From Escherichia coli (GTDB lineage Bacteria > Pseudomonadota > Gammaproteobacteria > Enterobacterales > Enterobacteriaceae): a stretch of DNA of 64,000 bases. The stretch lies in the NCBI RefSeq assembly GCF_003334765.1, contig NZ_QOWT01000003.1; one strand, 5' to 3'. A program made the translations under genes and the position numbers. The number at the start of each line of letters is the position of its first letter. Position 1 is the first letter of the stretch. Shown here piece after piece: positions 3,603-63,904 of the stretch. Below the pieces are notes generated by a model. The model searched no databases. It saw only the letters and a program-made list of their open reading frames with translations, and was not told the origin of the DNA.

Positions 3603-3679
<77 letters not shown>

Positions 3680-3887: not shown

Positions 3888-4985
3888 ATGAAAGGACGTT
3901 GGGTAAAGTACCTTCTTATGGGCACGGTTGTGGCAATGCTTGCCGCCTGCTCTTCCAAACCAACCGATCGCGGACAGCAATATAAAGACGGGAAATTTAC
4001 CCAGCCTTTCTCTCTGGTGAACCAGCCAGATGCCGTTGGCGCGCCGATTAACGCCGGTGATTTTGCCGAGCAAATTAACCATATCCGTAATTCGTCACCG
4101 CGTCTGTATGGCAACCAGAGTAATGTTTATAACGCGGTGCAAGAGTGGCTGCGCGCAGGCGGTGATACCCGCAATATGCGCCAGTTCGGCATTGATGCCT
4201 GGCAGATGGAAGGTGCCGACAACTATGGTAACGTGCAGTTTACCGGTTATTACACGCCGGTAATTCAGGCGCGCCATACCCGCCAGGGCGAGTTCCAGTA
4301 TCCTATTTACCGTATGCCGCCAAAACGTGGTCGTCTGCCGTCTCGTGCGGAGATCTACGCGGGGGCATTGAGTGATAAATATATTCTCGCTTACAGTAAC
4401 TCCCTGATGGATAACTTCATTATGGATGTGCAGGGTAGTGGGTATATCGACTTTGGTGATGGCAGTCCGCTTAACTTTTTCAGCTATGCAGGGAAAAACG
4501 GTCATGCCTATCGCAGCATTGGTAAGGTGCTGATCGACCGTGGCGAAGTGAAAAAAGAAGATATGTCGATGCAGGCGATTCGTCACTGGGGCGAAACACA
4601 CAGTGAAGCCGAGGTTCGCGAGCTGCTGGAACAGAACCCGTCTTTCGTCTTCTTTAAACCGCAATCTTTTGCTCCGGTGAAAGGGGCAAGTGCGGTGCCG
4701 CTGGTTGGTCGCGCGTCAGTTGCCTCTGATCGTTCCATTATTCCGCCAGGTACTACCTTGCTGGCAGAAGTGCCGTTGCTGGATAATAACGGCAAATTTA
4801 ATGGTCAGTACGAACTGCGTCTGATGGTGGCGCTGGATGTCGGTGGTGCAATCAAAGGCCAACACTTCGATATCTATCAAGGGATCGGGCCGGAAGCCGG
4901 ACACCGCGCAGGTTGGTACAACCACTATGGACGTGTCTGGGTGCTGAAAACCGCCCCGGGCGCAGGTAACGTCTTTAGCGGCTGA
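3888..4985 (+). CDS. mltA: Membrane-bound lytic murein transglycosylase A (lipoprotein)
   Basis: ORF-track frame 3459..4985; the real start is the ATG at 3888 (MKGRWVKYLLMGTVVAMLAACSS, lipobox); the upstream part of the track ORF runs across the tRNA and is an artefact. Confidence 0.93.
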   Translation: MKGRWVKYLLMGTVVAMLAACSSKPTDRGQQYKDGKFTQPFSLVNQPDAVGAPINAGDFAEQINHIRNSSPRLYGNQSNVYNAVQEWLRAGGDTRNMRQFGIDAWQMEGADNYGNVQFTGYYTPVIQARHTRQGEFQYPIYRMPPKRGRLPSRAEIYAGALSDKYILAYSNSLMDNFIMDVQGSGYIDFGDGSPLNFFSYAGKNGHAYRSIGKVLIDRGEVKKEDMSMQAIRHWGETHSEAEVRELLEQNPSFVFFKPQSFAPVKGASAVPLVGRASVASDRSIIPPGTTLLAEVPLLDNNGKFNGQYELRLMVALDVGGAIKGQHFDIYQGIGPEAGHRAGWYNHYGRVWVLKTAPGAGNVFSG

Positions 4986-5073
4986 TGTGATATTCTGTAT
5001 GCCGTTTTTACGGATATGACAGGGTGAGGGGTAACCTCACATCCTGATTATTGACTAAGTGCGCGTTGTTCAT

Positions 5074-5171
5074 GCCGGATGCGGCGTGAACGCCTTATCC
5101 GGCCTACAAATCATGCAAATCCAAAATATTGCAGGAGTTATGTAGGCCTGATAAGCGTAGCGCATCAGGCA
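5074..5171. repeat. REP/BIME element (two inverted REP units)
   Basis: gccggatgcggcgtgaacgccttatccggcctaca and tgtaggcctgataagcgtagcgcatcaggca, a typical REP consensus in opposite orientation. Coordinates approximate. Confidence 0.8.
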
Positions 5172-5223
5172 TTTATGCGTTTAGGGTGAGGGATAACCTC
5201 GCCCTTTTTAATTCTGAGGTGCT

Positions 5224-6030
5224 ATGTCTGTGGTAATTAGTGATGCATGGCGTCAGCGTTTTGGTGGCACAGCGCGTCTGTATGGTGAAAAAGCGTTGCA
5301 ACTGTTTGCTGACGCGCATATTTGTGTGGTTGGTATCGGTGGTGTCGGTTCCTGGGCGGCGGAAGCGCTGGCGCGCACGGGGATTGGCGCAATCACGCTT
5401 ATCGATATGGATGATGTGTGCGTCACCAATACCAATCGGCAAATTCATGCCCTGCGCGATAACGTTGGGCTGGCAAAAGCGGAAGTTATGGCGGAGCGTA
5501 TTCGCCAGATTAACCCGGAGTGCCGTGTAACGGTGGTGGATGATTTCGTGACGCCGGATAACGTAGCGCAGTATATGAGCGTGGGTTATTCGTACGTGAT
5601 TGATGCCATTGATAGTGTACGGCCCAAAGCGGCGCTGATTGCTTATTGTCGGCGCAATAAAATCCCACTGGTCACAACCGGTGGCGCGGGTGGGCAGATT
5701 GATCCGACGCAGATTCAGGTTACCGATCTGGCGAAAACGATTCAGGACCCGCTGGCGGCGAAGTTGCGCGAGCGCCTGAAAAGCGATTTTGGCGTAGTGA
5801 AAAACAGTAAAGGTAAGCTCGGCGTGGATTGCGTGTTTTCTACTGAAGCGCTGGTGTACCCGCAGTCAGACGGTACGGTGTGTGCGATGAAAGCCACGGC
5901 AGAAGGGCCGAAGCGGATGGATTGTGCATCTGGATTTGGCGCGGCAACGATGGTGACCGCCACCTTTGGGTTTGTTGCGGTTTCTCATGCGCTGAAGAAG
6001 ATGATGGCGAAAGCGGCGCGTCAGGGTTAA
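5224..6030 (+). CDS. tcdA: tRNA threonylcarbamoyladenosine dehydratase (E1-like, ThiF/MoeB fold)
   Basis: 268-aa ORF with the GxGxxG motif VGIGGVGSWAAEAL; matches TcdA (CsdL/YgdL); adjacent to csdE-csdA. Confidence 0.9.
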   Translation: MSVVISDAWRQRFGGTARLYGEKALQLFADAHICVVGIGGVGSWAAEALARTGIGAITLIDMDDVCVTNTNRQIHALRDNVGLAKAEVMAERIRQINPECRVTVVDDFVTPDNVAQYMSVGYSYVIDAIDSVRPKAALIAYCRRNKIPLVTTGGAGGQIDPTQIQVTDLAKTIQDPLAAKLRERLKSDFGVVKNSKGKLGVDCVFSTEALVYPQSDGTVCAMKATAEGPKRMDCASGFGAATMVTATFGFVAVSHALKKMMAKAARQG

Positions 6031-8148: not shown

Positions 8149-8165
8149 TTCGCGATCGCAAGGTA

Positions 8166-8370
8166 AAAAAAAGCACCGCAATTAGGCGGTGCTACATTAA
8201 TCACTATGGACAGACAGGGTAAATGTACAGGAAGTGAAAAAAGGTAGCTTTGCTACCATGGTCTGAATCGCAGACCAATTGCAAACACAACAACACAACA
8301 TCACAACCGTAAGCCAAAAGTTCACCAGAACACGCATTCCGATAAAACTTTTCGTTCCGGCTCAGGAAGT
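8166..8370 (-). ncRNA. gcvB: GcvB small regulatory RNA, divergent from gcvA
   Basis: The reverse complement matches the GcvB sequence as I recall it (ACTTCCTGAGCCGGAACGAAAAGTTTTATCGG ... GCACCGCCTAATTGCGGTGCTTTTTTT), including the GU-rich region and terminal terminator. Ends approximate. Confidence 0.9.
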
Positions 8371-24869: not shown

Positions 24870-25718
24870 TTATTGCCGAACCAGTCTTGTGGTCGATGGG
24901 ACAAAATCGCTATTACTGCGCCACGGGTTAATGTCCAGACCGCCACGACGGGTATAACGTGCGTAAACGCTCAATTTTTCTGGCTGGCAGAAGCGTAACA
25001 GGTCATTAAAGATGCGTTCCACGCACTGTTCGTGGAACTCGTTGTGATGACGGAATGAGACCAGGTAACGCAGCAGTTTTTCTCTGTCAATTTGGCGTCC
25101 ACGATACTGAATTTGGAGCGAACCCCAATCTGGTTGATGGGTGATCAGGCAGTTTGATTTCAGCAGGTGGCTGACAAGCGTCTCTTCCACTACTTTTTCA
25201 CCACAGGTGGCATTCTCCAGATAGTCAGTAGTGAATTCATAGTTATCGATAGTGATATCCTGGTCATCAATGCAAGTGCCATTAAAATGACCTATCGGCT
25301 GGCCTTCCAGTTCATCAAGACGATATAACGCCACGCTAATCTTACCCTGAGCGCAAGTGCTTAAGTCGCGCTCCAGCGTCTGGCGCACCTCATCCCAGTT
25401 ATTAAAACGCGTCTGGTTAAAACTGTTGAGATAGAGCTTAAAACTCTTCGACTCAATCAGATTTACGCTGGTGTAATCAAGTTCAACATGACCGACAGCG
25501 ACCTGCGGCAAACCTTTCGCATTCAGCCAGGAAAGTTCATACAGCGTCCAGATATCCGTACCGTGAAAAGGCAGGTTATCCGCTTTCAGACCCAGCGGGT
25601 CGCGATTCAGGCTGCGTGGAACGCCTTGCAGTAGGCTGGCGTCATAGGTATCCCGGTAATCGGTTGATTTTCCAAGAGTCAGGCCCGCAAGTGCCTGATG
25701 GTTTGCATAAGAAGACAT
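24870..25718 (-). CDS. queF: NADPH-dependent 7-cyano-7-deazaguanine (preQ0) reductase
   Basis: 282-aa ORF matching QueF (YqcD). Confidence 0.92.
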
Positions 25719-25785
25719 GTTTCACCGTCATAAACCAGATAAACTAAACGACAAGTGTATCTGGTTTAAGTGAAGAGAGAAATTA

Positions 25786-26331
25786 GTGGACGATTTGACC
25801 GCACAAGCCCTGAAAGATTTTACTGCACGCTACTGCGATGCGTGGCATGAAGAGCATAAAAGCTGGCCGTTAAGTGAGGAACTGTACGGTGTTCCTTCAC
25901 CGTGCATTATTTCAACTACCGAAGATGCCGTATACTGGCAACCCCAGCCGTTTACCGGGGAACAAAATGTAAACGCGGTTGAACGCGCTTTTGATATTGT
26001 GATACAACCCACAATTCATACCTTTTATACGACTCAGTTTGCCGGGGATATGCACGCGCAGTTTGGCGATATCAAACTGACATTGCTGCAAACCTGGAGT
26101 GAAGACGACTTCCGTCGGGTGCAGGAAAATCTGATTGGTCATCTGGTGACTCAGAAAAGGCTAAAACTGCCGCCCACACTATTTATCGCGACGCTGGAAG
26201 AAGAGTTAGAGGTCATCTCGGTGTGTAATCTCTCCGGTGAAGTGTGCAAAGAGACGCTGGGAACACGTAAACGGACGCATTTAGCCTCAAATCTTGCGGA
26301 ATTCCTTAATCAACTTAAGCCTCTTCTGTAA
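25786..26331 (+). CDS. syd: SecY-interacting protein Syd
   Basis: 181-aa ORF matching Syd. Confidence 0.9.
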
Positions 26332-26350
26332 TCCAAATACCCCATCTGGT

Positions 26351-26368
26351 TGTGAGAGATCTCTTACA
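26351..26368. promoter_or_regulatory. UvrY (BarA/UvrY) binding box upstream of csrB
   Basis: Near-palindrome tgtgagagatctcttaca about 170 bp upstream of the csrB 5' end; matches the UvrY/SirA box as I recall it. Confidence 0.7.
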
Positions 26369-26541
26369 GACTCTGTAGGAGATCGCCAGGAAATAAGCGA
26401 ATACTTAAAAAGATAAGAATCGTTATTTTCATTTAAAATCAAAATGTTGATTGTTAATTCTTAACTTTCATATGAAATTTTCCTTAAGGCATTGTCTGTA
26501 AGCGCCTTGTAAGACTTCGCGAAAAAGACGATTCTATCTTC

Positions 26542-26908
26542 GTCGACAGGGAGTCAGACAACGAAGTGAACATCAGGATGATGACACTTCTGCAGGACAC
26601 ACCAGGATGGTGTTTCAGGGAAAGGCTTCTGGATGAAGCGAAGAGGATGACGCAGGACGCGTTAAAGGACACCTCCAGGATGGAGAATGAGAACCGGTCA
26701 GGATGATTCGGTGGGTCAGGAAGGCCAGGGACACTTCAGGATGAAGTATCACATCGGGGTGGTGTGAGCAGGAAGCAATAGTTCAGGATGAACGATTGGC
26801 CGCAAGGCCAGAGGAAAAGTTGTCAAGGATGAGCAGGGAGCAACAAAAGTAGCTGGAATGCTGCGAAACGAACCGGGAGCGCTGTGAATACAGTGCTCCC
26901 TTTTTTTA
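26542..26908 (+). ncRNA. csrB: CsrB regulatory RNA (CsrA-sequestering sRNA)
   Basis: About 367-nt non-coding stretch starting GTCGACAGGGAGTCAGACAACG, with six exact CAGGATG repeats plus about ten further GGA-containing variants (AAGGATG, CTGGATG, GAGGATG, CAGGAAG), ending in the hairpin gggagcgctgtgaatacagtgctccc followed by TTTTTTT. Confidence 0.93.
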
Positions 26909-26952
26909 TTCCTGCTATCCTTCGCGGCAGTTTTTCTTATTGAGGTTGCTTT

Positions 26953-27282
26953 ATGACCACTCATGACCGCGTTCGTCTCCAGTTGCAGGCGCTTGAAGCG
27001 TTACTGCGTGAACATCAGCACTGGCGAAACGATGAACCCCAGCCGCATCAATTTAATAGTACCCAACCGTTCTTTATGGACACCATGGAACCACTGGAGT
27101 GGTTGCAGTGGGTGCTGATCCCGCGAATGCACGATTTGTTAGATAACAAACAGCCGTTACCGGGCGCTTTTGCCGTTGCACCCTATTATGAAATGGCGCT
27201 GGCGACGGACCATCCGCAACGCGCGCTTATTCTGGCTGAGCTGGAAAAACTGGATGCTCTTTTTGCGGATGATGCGAGCTAA
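26953..27282 (+). CDS. yqcC: DUF446 family protein
   Basis: 109-aa ORF; matches YqcC by sequence and position upstream of truC. Confidence 0.85.
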   Translation: MTTHDRVRLQLQALEALLREHQHWRNDEPQPHQFNSTQPFFMDTMEPLEWLQWVLIPRMHDLLDNKQPLPGAFAVAPYYEMALATDHPQRALILAELEKLDALFADDAS

Positions 27283-28064
27283 TGCTGGAAATACTCTATC
27301 AGGATGAATGGCTGGTTGCGGTAAATAAACCCTCCGGCTGGCTGGTTCACCGCAGCTGGCTGGATCGCGACGAGAAAGTAGTGGTCATGCAAACCGTGCG
27401 TGACCAGATAGGCCAGCATGTTTTTACTGCTCATCGTCTGGACCGACCCACTTCTGGTGTGTTGTTGATGGGATTATCCAGCGAGGCCGGACGGCTGCTG
27501 GCACAACAGTTTGAACAGCACCAAATCCAGAAACGTTACCATGCGATTGTGCGCGGCTGGTTGATGGAAGAAGCGGTGCTGGATTATCCACTGGTGGAAG
27601 AACTGGACAAAATCGCTGATAAATTTGCCCGCGAAGATAAAGGCCCGCAGCCAGCAGTGACGCATTATCGCGGTCTGGCGACCGTAGAAATGCCGGTAGC
27701 GACCGGACGTTACCCGACCACGCGCTACGGCCTGGTGGAACTGGAGCCGAAAACCGGACGCAAACATCAGCTTCGCCGACATCTTGCCCATTTGCGTCAT
27801 CCGATTATTGGCGATAGCAAACATGGCGATTTACGCCAGAATCGCAGCGGTGCTGAGCATTTTGGCCTCCAGCGGTTAATGCTACATGCCAGTCAGTTGT
27901 CATTGACGCATCCTTTTACTGGCGAGCCGCTGACTATTCACGCGGGCCTGGACGACACCTGGATGCAGGCGTTATCACAATTTGGCTGGCGCGGTCTGCT
28001 TCCTGAAAATGAAAGGGTTGAGTTCAGTGCGCCATCGGGTCAGGATGGAGAGATAAGTTCCTAA
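27282..28064 (+). CDS. truC: tRNA pseudouridine(65) synthase
   Basis: 260-aa ORF with the RluA-family motif [12 protein letters not shown]; start overlaps the yqcC stop. Confidence 0.92.
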
Positions 28065-28081
28065 TCCAGGGAGAAAACGGT

Positions 28082-28531
28082 ATGGCGGAAATTGGTATTT
28101 TTGTCGGCACCATGTACGGGAATTCACTGTTAGTGGCCGAAGAAGCGGAAGCGATTCTGACCGCGCAGGGCCACAAAGCAACGGTATTTGAAGATCCTGA
28201 ATTAAGCGACTGGCTGCCCTATCAGGATAAGTATGTTCTGGTGGTTACGTCCACGACCGGGCAGGGCGACCTTCCTGATAGCATTGTGCCACTCTTTCAG
28301 GGAATCAAAGATAGTCTGGGCTTCCAGCCGAATCTGCGTTATGGCGTGATTGCGCTCGGCGACAGTAGTTATGTGAATTTCTGCAATGGCGGCAAACAGT
28401 TCGATGCCTTGTTGCAGGAACAGAGCGCTCAGCGGGTTGGCGAAATGCTGTTGATTGACGCCAGTGAGAACCCGGAACCGGAAACGGAATCAAATCCGTG
28501 GGTCGAACAGTGGGGCACGCTGTTGTCCTGA
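28082..28531 (+). CDS. yqcA: Flavodoxin-like protein
   Basis: 149-aa ORF with flavodoxin signature ([12 protein letters not shown]); matches YqcA. Confidence 0.88.
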
Positions 28532-28965
28532 TATGTTCAGCGAGCGGTAAATGTCGTTTTAGCGGTGCTGAATCGAATCTTTTCAGGCAAATGTCAGTAA
28601 AAACTGCTTCATAGCGCGGATTTTTACTGGCGTTTGCCTGGAGTCAAGCGATCCATTTCATACTCTTCTTTATTTCTTCGTTTTAACCCTTCCTTTCTTG
28701 TTCTTGTTTTCATTTCCGTGAAGTGGATTCCACCGTCCAGGGCTAATGCCAAAATCGGGCCTCATTGAACGCATTAATGTTGTGTTGTTGCACGGTGAGC
28801 CGCTATGGCGCGCTTTTTATACTGCTATTGCCAGATATAAACACGCGCCGTATTCGGCGAACGACCTATAAAAACGGCAAAAAACACCCTACGTCACCTC
28901 TGATTTCCTGGCGATGTCGCAGTCCAGAGTGAGCGTGGCTAACGCGAATTTTCAGGAGTGCAACA

Positions 28966-30318
28966 ATGAGTTCTTTAAGTCAGGCTGCGAGCAGTGTGGA
29001 AAAACGCACAAATGCTCGTTACTGGATAGTGGTGATGTTGTTTATCGTCACATCCTTCAACTACGGCGACCGCGCTACGCTCTCTATCGCCGGTTCGGAA
29101 ATGGCCAAAGATATCGGCCTTGATCCCGTGGGAATGGGCTATGTGTTCTCTGCTTTCTCATGGGCTTATGTTATCGGGCAGATCCCTGGTGGCTGGTTGC
29201 TGGACCGTTTTGGTTCAAAACGCGTCTACTTCTGGTCGATCTTTATCTGGTCGATGTTTACCTTGCTGCAAGGCTTCGTCGATATCTTTAGTGGATTCGG
29301 CATTATCGTTGCCCTGTTTACGCTGCGCTTCCTGGTCGGGCTTGCTGAAGCGCCATCTTTCCCCGGCAACAGTCGCATTGTTGCGGCCTGGTTTCCGGCG
29401 CAGGAAAGGGGAACGGCGGTGTCGATTTTTAACTCCGCTCAATACTTCGCAACGGTGATCTTCGCGCCGATTATGGGCTGGCTGACGCATGAAGTGGGCT
29501 GGTCACACGTCTTCTTCTTTATGGGCGGTCTGGGGATTGTCATCAGCTTTATCTGGTTGAAAGTCATCCACGAGCCAAATCAACATCCGGGGGTAAATAA
29601 GAAAGAGCTGGAGTACATCGCCGCGGGTGGTGCGCTGATCAATATGGATCAGCAAAACACCAAAGTTAAAGTGCCGTTCAGCGTGAAGTGGGGGCAGATC
29701 AAACAGCTGCTAGGGTCACGGATGATGATCGGCGTTTATATCGGTCAGTACTGTATCAACGCCCTGACTTACTTCTTTATTACCTGGTTCCCGGTTTATC
29801 TGGTGCAGGCACGCGGGATGTCGATTCTGAAAGCGGGCTTTGTGGCTTCCGTGCCGGCGGTTTGCGGTTTTATCGGCGGTGTGCTGGGTGGGATTATTTC
29901 CGACTGGCTGATGCGCCGCACGGGATCGCTGAACATTGCGCGTAAAACACCGATCGTAATGGGCATGTTGCTGTCGATGGTGATGGTGTTCTGCAACTAC
30001 GTCAACGTTGAGTGGATGATCATCGGCTTTATGGCGCTGGCCTTCTTCGGTAAGGGCATCGGGGCGCTGGGTTGGGCAGTAATGGCAGATACCGCGCCAA
30101 AAGAGATCAGCGGTCTTTCCGGTGGCCTGTTCAACATGTTCGGTAACATTTCTGGCATCGTCACGCCAATCGCAATTGGTTATATCGTTGGCACGACTGG
30201 CTCGTTTAATGGGGCGCTGATTTATGTTGGTGTTCATGCCTTAATCGCGGTACTGAGCTACCTGGTGCTGGTGGGCGATATCAAGCGTATCGAGTTGAAA
30301 CCTGTTGCGGGGCAATAA
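28966..30318 (+). CDS. gudP: Glucarate/galactarate MFS transporter
   Basis: 450-aa 12-TM ORF matching GudP; first gene of gudPXD. Confidence 0.92.
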
Positions 30319-30319
30319 G

Positions 30320-31660
30320 ATGGCGACACAATCCAGTCCTGTTATTACTGATATGAAAGTCATTCCGGTGGCCGGGCATGACAGCATGTTGCTTAATATT
30401 GGTGGGGCACATAACGCATATTTCACCCGCAATATTGTGGTACTCACCGATAACGCCGGGCATACCGGCATTGGTGAAGCGCCGGGCGGAGATGTGATTT
30501 ATCAGACGCTTGTCGATGCTATTCCGATGGTTCTGGGCCAGGAAGTTGCGCGACTGAATAAAGTGGTCCAGCAGGTGCATAAAGGTAATCAGGCCGCCGA
30601 TTTTGATACCTTCGGTAAAGGTGCCTGGACCTTTGAATTACGCGTTAACGCCGTGGCGGCGCTGGAAGCCGCTTTGCTTGACCTGCTAGGTAAGGCGCTG
30701 AATGTTCCGGTCTGCGAACTGTTAGGGCCAGGCAAGCAACGCGAGGCTATTACCGTCCTCGGTTATCTGTTTTATATCGGTGATCGGACCAAAACCGATC
30801 TTCCTTATGTGGAAAATACGCCGGGCAACCATGAGTGGTATCAGTTGCGGCATCAGAAAGCAATGAACAGCGAAGCCGTTGTGCGTCTGGCGGAAGCCTC
30901 ACAGGATCGCTACGGCTTTAAAGATTTCAAACTTAAGGGCGGCGTGTTACCTGGCGAGCAAGAAATCGACACTGTTCGTGCATTGAAGAAACGCTTCCCG
31001 GATGCGCGGATTACCGTTGATCCCAACGGTGCATGGCTGCTTGATGAAGCCATTTCTTTATGCAAAGGGCTGAATGATGTTCTTACCTATGCCGAAGATC
31101 CATGCGGCGCAGAACAGGGCTTCTCCGGACGTGAAGTGATGGCGGAATTTCGACGGGCGACCGGCTTGCCCGTCGCGACTAACATGATCGCCACCAACTG
31201 GCGCGAAATGGGTCATGCGGTGATGCTCAATGCGGTAGATATTCCACTTGCCGATCCGCACTTCTGGACGCTTTCCGGTGCAGTCCGTGTGGCGCAGCTT
31301 TGCGACGACTGGGGGCTGACCTGGGGCTGCCATTCTAATAACCATTTCGATATCTCTCTGGCGATGTTTACCCATGTGGGCGCGGCGGCACCGGGTAATC
31401 CTACCGCTATCGATACCCACTGGATTTGGCAGGAGGGCGATTGTCGCCTGACCCAAAATCCGCTGGAGATTAAAAACGGAAAAATTGCCGTTCCTGATGC
31501 GCCCGGTCTGGGCGTGGAACTGGACTGGGAACAGGTACAAAAGGCACATGAGGCCTATAAACGTCTGCCTGGCGGTGCGCGTAACGACGCAGGTCCGATG
31601 CAGTACCTGATCCCCGGCTGGACCTTTGACCGTAAACGTCCCGTTTTCGGCCGTCATTGA
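30320..31660 (+). CDS. gudX: Glucarate dehydratase-related protein (enolase superfamily)
   Basis: ORF-track frame 30305..31660; product [31 protein letters not shown]... starts at the ATG at 30320. Confidence 0.92.
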
Positions 31661-31680
31661 TTCTGAAAAAGGACATAAAT

Positions 31681-33021
31681 ATGAGTTCTCAATTTACGAC
31701 GCCTGTTGTTACTGAAATGCAGGTTATCCCGGTGGCGGGTCATGACAGTATGCTGATGAATCTGAGTGGTGCACACGCACCGTTCTTTACGCGTAATATT
31801 GTGATTATCAAAGATAATTCTGGTCACACTGGCGTAGGGGAAATTCCCGGCGGCGAGAAAATCCGTAAAACGCTGGAAGATGCGATTCCGCTGGTGGTAG
31901 GTAAAACGCTGGGTGAATACAAAAACGTTCTGACGCTGGTGCGTAATACTTTTGCCGATCGTGATGCTGGTGGGCGCGGTTTGCAGACATTTGACCTACG
32001 TACCACTATTCATGTAGTTACCGGGATAGAAGCGGCAATGCTGGATCTGCTGGGGCAGCATCTGGGGGTAAACGTGGCATCGCTGCTGGGCGATGGTCAA
32101 CAGCGTAGCGAAGTCGAAATGCTCGGTTATCTGTTCTTCGTCGGTAATCGCAAAGCCACGCCGCTGCCGTATCAAAGCCAGCCGGATGACTCATGCGACT
32201 GGTATCGCCTGCGTCATGAAGAAGCGATGACGCCGGATGCGGTGGTGCGCCTGGCGGAAGCGGCATATGAAAAATATGGCTTCAACGATTTCAAACTGAA
32301 GGGCGGTGTACTGGCCGGGGAAGAAGAGGCCGAGTCTATTGTGGCACTGGCGCAACGCTTCCCGCAGGCGCGTATTACGCTCGATCCTAACGGTGCCTGG
32401 TCGCTGAACGAAGCGATTAAAATCGGTAAATACCTGAAAGGTTCGCTGGCTTATGCAGAAGATCCGTGTGGTGCGGAGCAAGGTTTCTCCGGGCGTGAAG
32501 TGATGGCAGAGTTCCGTCGCGCGACAGGTCTACCGACTGCAACCAATATGATCGCCACCGACTGGCGGCAAATGGGCCATACGCTCTCCCTGCAATCCGT
32601 TGATATCCCGCTGGCGGATCCGCATTTCTGGACAATGCAAGGTTCGGTACGTGTGGCGCAAATGTGCCATGAATTTGGCCTGACCTGGGGTTCACACTCT
32701 AACAACCACTTCGATATTTCCCTGGCGATGTTTACCCATGTTGCCGCCGCTGCACCGGGTAAAATTACTGCTATTGATACGCACTGGATTTGGCAGGAAG
32801 GCAATCAGCGCCTGACCAAAGAACCGTTTGAGATCAAAGGCGGGCTGGTACAGGTGCCAGAAAAACCGGGGCTGGGTGTAGAAATCGATATGGATCAAGT
32901 GATGAAAGCCCATGAGCTGTATCAGAAACACGGGCTTGGCGCGCGTGACGATGCGATGGGAATGCAGTATCTGATTCCTGGCTGGACGTTCGATAACAAG
33001 CGCCCGTGCATGGTGCGTTAA
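31681..33021 (+). CDS. gudD: D-glucarate dehydratase
   Basis: ORF-track frame 31657..33021; product [32 protein letters not shown]... starts at the ATG at 31681; paralogous to gudX. Confidence 0.93.
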
Positions 33022-33143
33022 GACAGAAAACCAAAACCGGCTCTATCTGGAGCCGGTTTGAGACTGATGCTAAACGCAAAATAGCCTGTTGTGCTATGTA
33101 TCAGGTCTACATCATTTTTTAATTCATTGAATTTAATTGGTTT

Positions 33144-33180
33144 TGTAGGCCGGATAAGGCGTTAACGCCGCATCCGGCAT
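33144..33180. repeat. REP element
   Basis: tgtaggccggataaggcgttaacgccgcatccggcat between convergent gudD and barA. Coordinates approximate. Confidence 0.75.
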
Positions 33181-33252
33181 AAACACAGGCACTTTGTCAC
33201 CAATCTGAAACCAGCGTCATAAAAAGCCGATTGCTACTCGACAAGACATCCA

Positions 33253-36009
33253 TTACCCGAGAATTTTGCTGGCTTCGCGCGCGACATTATCCATCTCGTC
33301 CAACAGTTCCAGCAGCTCCGGTTCCAAATCTTCTTCTTTAGTACCGCTACGTAGCTGTTGTTCGATCAGTTGGCAGAGATTCTTCATACGTGGCACACCG
33401 CTATAGCCGCAACTGCCATGCAGTTTATGAATCAAATCAACCAGGCCTTCCGGGTTTTCTCCAACCAGCTGTTCCTCAACTTTGTTGCGAACTTCAGGCA
33501 GGAAATCGAGTAACATTTGCAGCATATCGCGCGCTAAATCGGTTTTTCCTGCTGCCTGGCGTAGTGCCAGTTGCCAGTCGAGGGTCGCATTCGGGTTCAC
33601 CACAATTTCGTTGACTTCGGGCGTCACGACGCGAGAGGAAATACCGCTGCCAGGCTTGTAGCGCAACAACAAATTATGCAATCGCTCTTCTTCAATCGGT
33701 TTCGCCAGATAATCGCTCATCCCTGCGCCAAGCAGCTTCTCTTTTTGCCCGGCCATTGCATGCGCCGTTACCGCGATAACCGGCGTTTGTTGCTGATGCG
33801 GGAGTTGGTGGATGAGTTCGCAGGCCCGAATGCCATCCATGTCCGGCATTTGAATATCCATTAAGATCAAATCGAACGGCATCTGTTTCGCCCGTTCAAC
33901 CGCCTGATGCCCGCTATCGCAAAGTTCCACATGTTGCACCATATCTTCCAGCAATGCGCCGATAAGTTTCAGGTTAGCGGGGTTGTCATCAACCGCCATG
34001 ACTGTCATTGCCAGCTTACTTTCATCGGTTACAGGCAAAAGCGTGTTTTGTTTGTGATGACAAAATTCCGTCAGGGCAGGCAACAGGCGTGTAGGTGTTA
34101 ATGGTTTCAGCAGACACGCGCCGATACCATCTTGCTTGAGTTTTTCAGCATTGACTTGTGCATGGCAAGGAAGTGCCAGCATCAGGAAATCGGTCATCGA
34201 TACCGCTTTCGCTAATCGCTCATGTTGCATTGTTAGCGGCTCGCGGAAGGTCACCGCGATGCCTAACAACATCATGTCGTAATGCGCGGGAGGCAGCGCG
34301 GAGAACGTTGGGCTATAAACCACTTCCAGCGGCGTTTCACTTAAAATATCCAGCGTGCATTGCGCTGCTGCGGAGTTTGGTTCGACATAGGCCAGGCGCT
34401 TACCTGCGAGGCACTGGGTGGATGGCCCTTCGATAATAATGTTCGGGTTCAGATCGAGATTAATGTGGAACCAGAAAGTTGAACCGCGATTCGGCTGGCT
34501 ATGGAACGAAATATCGCCGCCCATTTCATTAACCAGTTTTTGTGTAATCACCAGCCCCAGCCCGGTGCCACCATGACGGCGGGAAATACTGGCATCAGCC
34601 TGTCGGAAGGCCTGGAATAAGCGCGATTGATCGCGTTCAGGAATACCAATGCCGGTATCCCGAATCTGCACTTCAATCTGCACTTTGGTATTACTCAGCG
34701 CACGTTTTTCTACCAGAATATCAATGTTGCCATTCTCGGTGAATTTAATTGCATTCCCCACCAGGTTAGTGATGATTTGCTGTAATCGCAGCGGGTCGCC
34801 GATCACGTTATCAGGCACGTCGCTTTTAATATTGAGCGTCAGTTCTAACCCTTTATCGTGAGAAGAATGTGCCAGCAGAGTAACGACTTCATCCAGCGTG
34901 CTGCGTAGTGGGAATGGAATACTTTCCAGAATCAGCTTACCTGCTTCCAGTTTCGAGAAGTCGAGAACATCATTAATAATTGCCAGCAAATTATTTGCCG
35001 AACGTTCAATCGTATTCAGGTGATCGCGCTGCGTTGGTGTTAATTCTGTTTTCAGCGTCAGGCGGGTAAAGCCAATAACACCATTCAGTGGTGTACGCAG
35101 CTCGTGTGACATATTTGCCAGAAACTCGGATTTAATACGCGCCGCTTCCTGGGCGCGCTTTTTCGCCAGATCTAACTCAACGTTCTGAATTTCCATCTGC
35201 TCCAGCGTTTCACGCAGATCGGACGTCGCCTGGTCGATATTGTGCTGCATCTCTTCGTGATAAGCAGCCAGCGACATTGCCATCGAGTTGATACCGTTTT
35301 TCAGCATATCCAGCTCGCCGAGCATAAATCCTTCCACCCGGCTGTCGAGTTGCCCGCGACGGATGCGGTCGACGGTATTCACCATGTTGCGAATCGGACC
35401 GGTTACATCGCGCATTAAGCGCCAGCCAAAAATAAGCGCAATACCGATACAAAACAGCATCATCACGCTGGAAATAAAGATCTCTTTATATTGCTGCAAG
35501 CGAACCGATTTAAGATCCAGCTCCAGCGCAATATATCCCAACATATTTTGACTATTTTTGGCATCGCTACTGGGCGATTCGTCGGGGGAGTAACTCTCAG
35601 AAATAATCGGCGTGCGGAGGATCATAATATCGCCGTCACGAGTGACAGTGAGCTGGCGAGGAAACGGCACGTTGCTGCCGAGCTGCATTGATGAGGGATC
35701 AAGATGAAAATTGGAGGTGACAAAGAGTCGGTTATTTTCATCATAAACCGAAATCGCGCGAACAATATCGGAATGGCGACGATGCAGTACGCTTATTAAC
35801 TGACCGATAGATTCGCGATTTTGCAGGCTCATGCCATATTCAGTAGAAACTGCAAGCGGCTCAATAATGCTGGCACCGGCATCTTCCAGTTGACGCTGCA
35901 AGTCGTTATAGCGATGCACGACGAAAAAGATACTCAGCAATAAACCAATAAGGACGGTCGGTGCCAGGATCAGAATCATCATGCGTGCGCGCAGGCTGTA
36001 GTTGGTCAT
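33253..36009 (-). CDS. barA: Tripartite hybrid sensor histidine kinase BarA
   Basis: 918-aa ORF with HAMP, HisKA (SHELRTPLN), HATPase, receiver (D...K) and HPt domains. Confidence 0.95.
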
Positions 36010-63487: not shown

Positions 63488-63751
63488 ATATTGCCGGATA
63501 AATTAAACGCCTCTGTCAGAAATGATGGGGGCGTTTTTATTTTGCGAGCAGTATTCCTGATTTTAAACGTGAACGCCGCTGGAAGAATTATCAGGTATAG
63601 AATGGCGTCGGGTGCTTGAGGCTGTCTGGCGTTAAGCATTCGCGAGGTTCCAGATGGACAAAAGCCCCAGGCGATATTTCTATCAACCTGAGGCTTACGT
63701 TCGAACCCAAACAATTCGAATGTTAGTCTCTTCTTTGCAGGGAGGCAAGAC

Positions 63752-63904
63752 ATGCTGACAAAATATGCCCTTGTGGCAATCATAGTGCTGTGTTTTACAG
63801 TACTGGGATTCACGCTGATGGTAGGCGACTCGTTGTGTGAGTTGAGTATCAGAGAACGTGGTATGGAGTTTAAGGCAGTTCTCGCTTACGAATCGAAGAA
63901 GTAG
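63752..63904 (+). CDS. Hok/Gef-family type I toxin-like small membrane protein (50 aa)
   Basis: Not in the ORF track (under 60 aa). ATG at 63752 preceded by GGAGG 6 nt upstream; product [50 protein letters not shown] has one TM helix, the conserved LCE motif and the C-terminal AYES motif of Hok/Gef proteins. Confidence 0.75.

Follow-up and report, generated by a model that had tools for sequence, protein, structure and literature searches.

The small RNA CsrB is the main antagonist of CsrA, a global translational regulator of carbon metabolism, biofilm formation, motility and virulence. In Escherichia coli, the RNA is 369 nt long and carries 22 numbered GGA sites (Vakulskas et al., 2016; PMC5027483), and the binding and sequestration of CsrA by the very sequence described below have been established experimentally (Vakulskas et al., 2016; PMC5027483; Zere et al., 2015; PMC4682653). 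The decay of CsrB requires first RNase E cuts at A327 and A331; CsrA bound to GGA sites 20 and 21 shields the RNA from cleavage, and CsrD, responding to EIIA-Glc, overcomes this block (Vakulskas et al., 2016; PMC5027483).

The promoter of E. coli csrB has been characterized in similar detail. An 18-mer centred at −183/−182 forms the centre of a UvrY ChIP-exo peak extending from −222 to −142, and its region alone is protected by UvrY-P in DNase I footprints; UvrY binding falls 35-fold in a barA mutant (Zere et al., 2015; PMC4682653). A putative IHF site lies between two UvrY crosslinking regions, and CsrB is about 10-fold lower in ihf mutants. For the second UvrY ChIP-exo region (−56 to +25) neither a footprint nor an inverted repeat was found, and UvrY-P, IHF and RNA polymerase by themselves did not suffice to reconstitute csrB transcription in vitro (Zere et al., 2015; PMC4682653). 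Here, we report a computational analysis of a csrB locus within a 64-kb stretch of E. coli DNA, referred to as the window, and compare it with these systems and across the Enterobacterales.

A first-pass annotation, made from the sequence alone, had placed the whole CsrB RNA in the spacer between syd and yqcC. The following features define this spacer:

25786–26331, + strand: syd (SecY-interacting protein; b2793), the upstream flank; NF003439 match of 286.7 bits and K-12 annotation
26542–26910, + strand: csrB, encoding the 369-nt non-coding RNA CsrB; supported by RF00018, identity to b4408, 22 GGA motifs and hairpin covariation
26953–27282, + strand: yqcC (DUF446 protein; b2792), the downstream flank; K-12 annotation, with its position kept in all orthologous loci

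The whole window was scanned with Rfam 15 at gathering thresholds and with clan competition. The lack of a CsrB covariance-model match had been named beforehand as the result that would count against the annotation; the search returned instead a match to CsrB (RF00018) at 26551–26910 on the + strand, with 380.4 bits (gathering score, 71; E = 1.2e-110), which spans model positions 1–356 of 356 and is thus full-length. Furthermore, window positions 25066–28566 (3.5 kb) align without gaps and with 100% identity to positions 2922500–2926000 of E. coli K-12 MG1655 (NC_000913.3, reverse strand). The ncRNA csrB (b4408), annotated there at 2924156–2924524, maps to 26542–26910 of the window, and the placement of the entire RNA between syd and yqcC is therefore confirmed both by the full-length match and by identity to b4408. 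The interval originally given for the RNA and its upstream box, 26351–26908, holds up in its coordinates except that its end falls 2 nt short of the annotated 26910; it comprises 191 bp of upstream regulatory DNA together with the RNA gene, and not the RNA alone. The earlier description of csrB as a well-known feature is also correct, as it is annotated in the K-12 reference. The locus is a textbook feature, already known, and no new biology follows from a sequence that is that of K-12.

Two other readings of the interval can be weighed against this identification. One places the transcript elsewhere in the CsrB/RsmB clan (as CsrC, RsmY, RsmZ or others), since hairpins with GGA loops and an upstream UvrY/GacA box are traits common to all members of the clan. 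Clan competition in Rfam nevertheless retained CsrB, with the full-length 380-bit match, and both the sequence and the position between syd and yqcC are those of K-12 csrB; for csrC in particular, the inverted repeat, TGTGAGACATTGCCGATA, differs and is less symmetric (Zere et al., 2015; PMC4682653). Identity to b4408 rules this reading out, and its probability is practically nil. The other reading is that the interval encodes at least one small protein. Four mechanical open reading frames of 45–71 aa do overlap csrB (26566–26706 on the + strand, and 26615–26752, 26484–26672 and 26749–26964 on the − strand); the + strand frame is open in E. albertii, and in Citrobacter werkmanii it has no internal stop, yet its aligned length there has ceased to be divisible by 3. 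Across the remaining 14 species, however, all four frames show lengths not divisible by 3, between one and four internal stops, or both, while the RNA hairpins and GGA motifs persist where the frames break. The GTG start of the + strand frame sits in a CsrA-binding hairpin, and K-12 annotates the locus as an ncRNA. Frame loss and stops outside Escherichia and Citrobacter effectively refute a protein-coding role, which we regard as highly improbable; the short frames had been dismissed as spurious in the first-pass annotation, and they do decay outside Escherichia in nearly all species. No reading frame is conserved, as befits a non-coding RNA of the CsrB/RsmB family. We conclude that 26542–26910 is almost certainly the csrB gene of K-12, namely a CsrA-titrating RNA with a promoter driven by UvrY-P and IHF, an intrinsic terminator, and RNase E decay gated by CsrA and CsrD.

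The many GGA-containing CsrA-binding motifs reported in the first-pass annotation are borne out by their numbers. The 369-nt gene holds 22 GGA, against a mean of 5.0 (sd 2.5) in all + strand windows of the same size, with a maximum of 13 away from csrB, and 12.2 ± 2.8 in mononucleotide-shuffled csrB. The longer motif CAGGA[TA]G occurs eight times in csrB, or 21.7 per kb, compared with 0.29 per kb on both strands of the remaining window, an enrichment of about 75-fold. The proposed count of GGA in predicted hairpin loops was also carried out. According to the structure line of RF00018, 11 lie in hairpin loops, nine in linkers and two in stems, and every one of the 11 non-terminator consensus hairpins carries a loop GGA; in an independent minimum free-energy fold, nine fall within hairpin loops and 16 are entirely unpaired. 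The loop and stem motifs of the Rfam structure line are as follows:

26576, 26605, 26631, 26655, 26678, 26701, 26719, 26739, 26771, 26827 and 26855, + strand: starts of the GGA motifs in hairpin loops
26682 and 26876, + strand: GGA motifs in stems, the latter within the terminator

Covariation supports the fold, as RNAalifold on 17 species predicted 47 pairs, 20 of which show compensatory two-sided changes. In Escherichia, Citrobacter and a number of further genera, one covarying hairpin, at 26751–26765 (alignment columns 236–250), carries a GGGG loop (CAUCGGGGUGGUG); the hairpin at the same position in Enterobacter, Cedecea, Hafnia, Klebsiella and Erwinia has a GGA loop, for example CGUCAGGAUGAUG. 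With GGGG in E. coli where these other genera have GGA, the E. coli hairpin appears, as far as the aligned sequences tell, to be a degenerate 23rd CsrA site.

The 3′ end of the gene contains the elements known to govern the termination and decay of the RNA:

26837–26857, + strand: GGA sites 20 (26837–26839) and 21 (26855–26857), RNA positions 296 and 314; role from Vakulskas et al. (2016; PMC5027483)
26866–26874, + strand: single-stranded 'necessary cleavage site' for RNase E; cleavage positions from Vakulskas et al. (2016; PMC5027483)
26875–26907, + strand: intrinsic terminator with an 11-bp stem and a 4-nt loop (26875–26900) followed by T7; terminator scan and Rfam consensus hairpin

The terminal hairpin and T-run of the first-pass annotation were both recovered, the stem at 26875–26900 being followed by TTTTTTT; in the 17-species prediction, four of the 11 stem pairs show compensatory changes. 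Nucleotides A327 and A331 correspond to 26868 and 26872, and both letters in the window are A. The single-stranded RNase E site, GAAACGAACC, is nearly invariant across 44 species, and in the same alignment the best-conserved part of the RNA is 26813–26875, which holds GGA sites 20 and 21 as well as GAAACGAACC. This conservation fits the published scheme in which RNase E, CsrA and CsrD control decay.

Upstream of the RNA gene, the first-pass annotation had also recognized a near-palindromic UvrY box, and the sequence and position of this element coincide with the published UvrY-P footprint. Two adjacent elements were located:

26351–26368, unstranded: UvrY box, the 18-bp near-perfect inverted repeat TGTGAGAGATCTCTTACA; a unique match and the footprinted site of Zere et al. 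(2015; PMC4682653)
26374–26384, + strand: TGTAGGAGATC, resembling a third UvrY half-site and lying 5 bp downstream of the box; strongly conserved columns and Zere et al. (2015; PMC4682653)

In the segment 26000–27300, the 18-mer is read as tgtgagagatctcttaca at 26351–26368, and is followed by AT-rich DNA, the segment rich in GGA and a GC-rich hairpin plus T-run. TGTGAGAGATCTCTTACA is found at a single place in the 64-kb window, where 0.01 chance matches would be expected with up to three mismatches; the one other match arises when this site is read on the complementary strand, with two mismatches, so that the box is near-palindromic. With +1 at 26542, its centre lies between −183 (26359) and −182 (26360), exactly where the same 18-mer was reported (Zere et al., 2015; PMC4682653). 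It is thus an 18-bp inverted repeat of the UvrY/SirA/GacA type (consensus TGTAAGNNNNNNCTTACA) situated far upstream of an sRNA promoter. The adjacent element includes the partial repeat TGTAGGAGA described 5 bp downstream of the box (window 26374–26382; Zere et al., 2015; PMC4682653), and the majority of other genera have TGTGAGAGATC here, which repeats the left half and centre of the box exactly.

Between the box and the RNA gene, three further elements can be proposed, for which we infer the exact coordinates:

26437–26449, + strand: IHF-like site AATCAAAATGTTG, which fits the consensus WATCAANNNNTTR and is centred near −99; placed by conservation
26507–26512, + strand: candidate −35 hexamer TTGTAA; TTGT is invariant in 44 species, and the assignment follows from the distance to +1
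26530–26537, + strand: candidate −10 region (GATTCT / TTCTAT) with an ambiguous hexamer; weak match to TATAAT

In the IHF-like site, the ATCA and TT columns (ATCA-N5-TT) are 90–100% conserved with fixed spacing across 44 species. A consensus scan found no strong sigma-70 promoter upstream of csrB, and the −10 hexamer is ambiguous for this reason; TTCTAT is moderately conserved in the Enterobacteriaceae, and Pantoea and Erwinia have AATAGT. The absence of a strong sigma-70 consensus fits an activator-dependent promoter.

Two other repeats in the promoter-proximal DNA were considered. Two direct TGTAAG hexamers (26497–26502 and 26508–26513) fall within the −56 to +25 ChIP-exo region, but a role as promoter-proximal UvrY half-sites is unsupported, as the first is unconserved in 44 species; the second is conserved because it coincides in part with the −35 hexamer and its invariant TTGT. 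An inverted repeat, GACGA-N8-TCGTC (26527–26544), spans the −10 region and +1 and was scored by the scan as terminator-like on the − strand. It was rejected as a minus-strand terminator, being kept in four of the 44 species, all of them Escherichia, with no minus-strand gene reading into it; the repeat is probably fortuitous.

The 44-species comparison rests on a search of species-representative genomes in which a CsrB-internal 16-mer, GGATGAGCAGGGAGCA, and not the box, was used as the query in order to avoid circularity. The scan matched at least 120 loci; among the matches listed, about 45 are from Enterobacterales, the other 75 or so being chance hits within unrelated phyla, and this species sample is partial and biased towards genera that retain the exact 16-mer. 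Among the matches listed, the box is present at every locus that has at least 20 GGA and whose upstream DNA extends far enough. These are 44 Enterobacterales loci, in which the box shows 0–4 mismatches (mostly 0–2) and lies 389–484 nt upstream of the 16-mer (476 in the window). No box with two or fewer mismatches was found in the low-GGA loci among the approximately 75 chance matches listed. All 16 loci tested against RF00018 are full-length matches (188–380 bits), including representatives of Citrobacter, Enterobacter, Trabulsiella, Pluralibacter, Cedecea, Hafnia, Mangrovibacter, Klebsiella, Erwinia, Edwardsiella, Mixta and Pantoea. Alignment of the 44 promoters leaves four conserved islands: the box, the adjacent half-site, the IHF-like site and the TTGT of the −35 hexamer. 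The gene order queF(−)–syd–csrB–yqcC–truC–yqcA is invariant in the orthologous loci examined. In Pluralibacter gergoviae and Klebsiella sp. BIGb0407, yqcC begins about 1.05–1.14 kb past the CsrB 3′ motif, compared with about 0.13–0.2 kb elsewhere, so that roughly 1 kb of additional DNA separates csrB and yqcC in these two species.

The gene for the sensor kinase that acts on UvrY lies on the same stretch of DNA:

33253–36009, − strand: barA, hybrid sensor kinase of the BarA/UvrY system; 918-aa open reading frame and NCBIfam equivalog NF008318

The BarA equivalog matches residues 1–917 of 918 with 1623.9 bits against a cut-off of 890. barA is convergent with csrB and lies 6,342 bp from its 3′ end and 6,902 bp from the box, in agreement with the approximate 7 kb, and with the coordinates, that had been given before. 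In E. albertii, Pluralibacter and Erwinia persicina, barA directly follows yqcA, about 1.7–1.8 kb from the CsrB 3′ motif; this distance is 3.0–7.4 kb in another Erwinia, a Klebsiella sp., Mangrovibacter and Enterobacter asburiae, and 6.4 kb here. In the window, about 4.7 kb (28531–33253) separates yqcA and barA, including a 454-codon open reading frame (31657–33021) that, given what is known of K-12, we take to be gudD. The arrangement in the three species with barA directly after yqcA suggests, from gene order, that the gud genes were inserted into an ancestral yqcA/barA junction in E. coli.

It is conceivable that the closeness of csrB and barA has been selected for function, through co-inheritance or co-localization of a sensor gene and the main target of its pathway, and in several genera barA is indeed convergent and downstream of csrB–yqcC–truC–yqcA. 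Against this, the distance varies about 5-fold through unrelated inserted genes (the gud genes in E. coli), and barA was not found within 9–10 kb of csrB in Hafnia paralvei, Pantoea sp. AS-PWVM4 and Erwinia sp. S63. The gene uvrY, whose product contacts csrB DNA, does not figure among the genes recognized close to csrB in the window, and in K-12 it maps far from csrB. Moreover, no cis mechanism is evident, because BarA acts on a diffusible protein, and general gene-order conservation is sufficient, because the whole block from queF to yqcA is syntenic. A functionally selected closeness is very unlikely; that the present 6.3-kb linkage is the selected remnant of an ancestral arrangement with barA after yqcA is equally doubtful, as gene-order conservation explains it just as well. 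The linkage is a common inherited gene order interrupted by insertions, with no evidence of function. We found no discussion of the csrB–barA linkage in the literature searched; a 2023 paper on the 'Spatiotemporal regulation of BarA/UvrY' concerns protein localization with HflKC and not gene position.

Within E. coli, a 661-bp csrB region is present at 95% identity or more in all 5426 complete genomes, of which 22 have no place covering at least 80% of the region. One further copy of part of the region was observed on a plasmid (n = 1 among the 5426 genomes), and csrB is disrupted in a few natural isolates. In one of these, the human isolate E. coli MARGA_3 (NZ_CM170101.1), an IS3-family element at about 4337–5597 is inserted after approximately nucleotide 94 of CsrB, equivalent to about 26635 of the window, a natural disruption of csrB. 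No csrB feature lies under the match in any of the 12 records listed. Likewise, two PGAP RefSeq records, of E2865 (661-bp query matched at 100% identity) and MARGA_3 (csrB interrupted), contain no csrB feature and annotate only syd and yqcC in the region. The recognition of csrB thus serves as a quality check, in which a major non-coding regulator missed by ORF-based views was recognized from the raw sequence. The Rfam scan identified other RNAs in the window:

3606–3679, − strand: tRNA, 61.4 bits
5107–5149, + strand: small RNA ES036 (CssrF), RF02751, 46.5 bits against a gathering score of 37.6
8165–8370, − strand: full-length GcvB sRNA, likewise a well-known non-coding regulator; RF00022, 199 bits (gathering score, 42)
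63610–63767, + strand: sok-type antitoxin RNA, RF01794, 113 bits against 59

The last match implies a hok/sok-like type I toxin–antitoxin locus at the right edge of the window; the RNA at 63610–63767 is presumably sokX, judging from its K-12 map position.

Taken with the identity, motifs, box, terminator, barA gene, statistical excess, conservation and covariation observed here, published experiments on the same sequence, which supply UvrY-P binding, IHF dependence, CsrA binding and the RNase E/CsrD pathway, allow the following mechanism to be proposed. BarA autophosphorylates and then phosphorylates UvrY, and UvrY-P binds the inverted repeat at 26351–26368 (−183/−182) and probably the adjacent half-site. 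IHF bound near −99 would bend the intervening DNA so that the distant activator could reach the promoter, a weak sigma-70-type promoter that would depend on UvrY-P and start transcription at 26542. Through its GGA sites, of which half occupy small hairpin loops, the 369-nt CsrB binds many CsrA dimers; CsrA is titrated off its mRNA targets, and CsrA-mediated control is relieved. The transcript ends at the intrinsic terminator, and its decay starts when RNase E cuts the single-stranded GAAACGAACC immediately preceding the terminator; CsrA at GGA sites 20 and 21 blocks this cut, and CsrD, with EIIA-Glc, lifts the block.

The closest described system is CsrB of E. coli K-12 itself (b4408), which has the same sequence, length of 369 nt, syd and yqcC flanks, 22 GGA, terminator and UvrY box; there is no difference. 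CsrC of E. coli and RsmY and RsmZ of Pseudomonas, members of Rfam clan CL00106, likewise sequester CsrA or RsmA through multiple GGA motifs and, as for csrB, are activated by UvrY or GacA from an upstream palindromic box. Nevertheless, they differ from CsrB in being shorter RNAs with fewer sites at other loci. In csrC, the inverted repeat is less symmetric and IHF is not needed (Zere et al., 2015; PMC4682653), whereas the pseudomonads differ in having no CsrD-dependent decay (Vakulskas et al., 2016; PMC5027483). The narG promoter, controlled by NarL, IHF and Fnr, resembles that of csrB in that a response regulator of the FixJ/NarL family occupies a site about 190 bp upstream and IHF bends the intervening DNA, an analogy drawn previously (Zere et al., 2015; PMC4682653), but it responds to another regulator and another signal.
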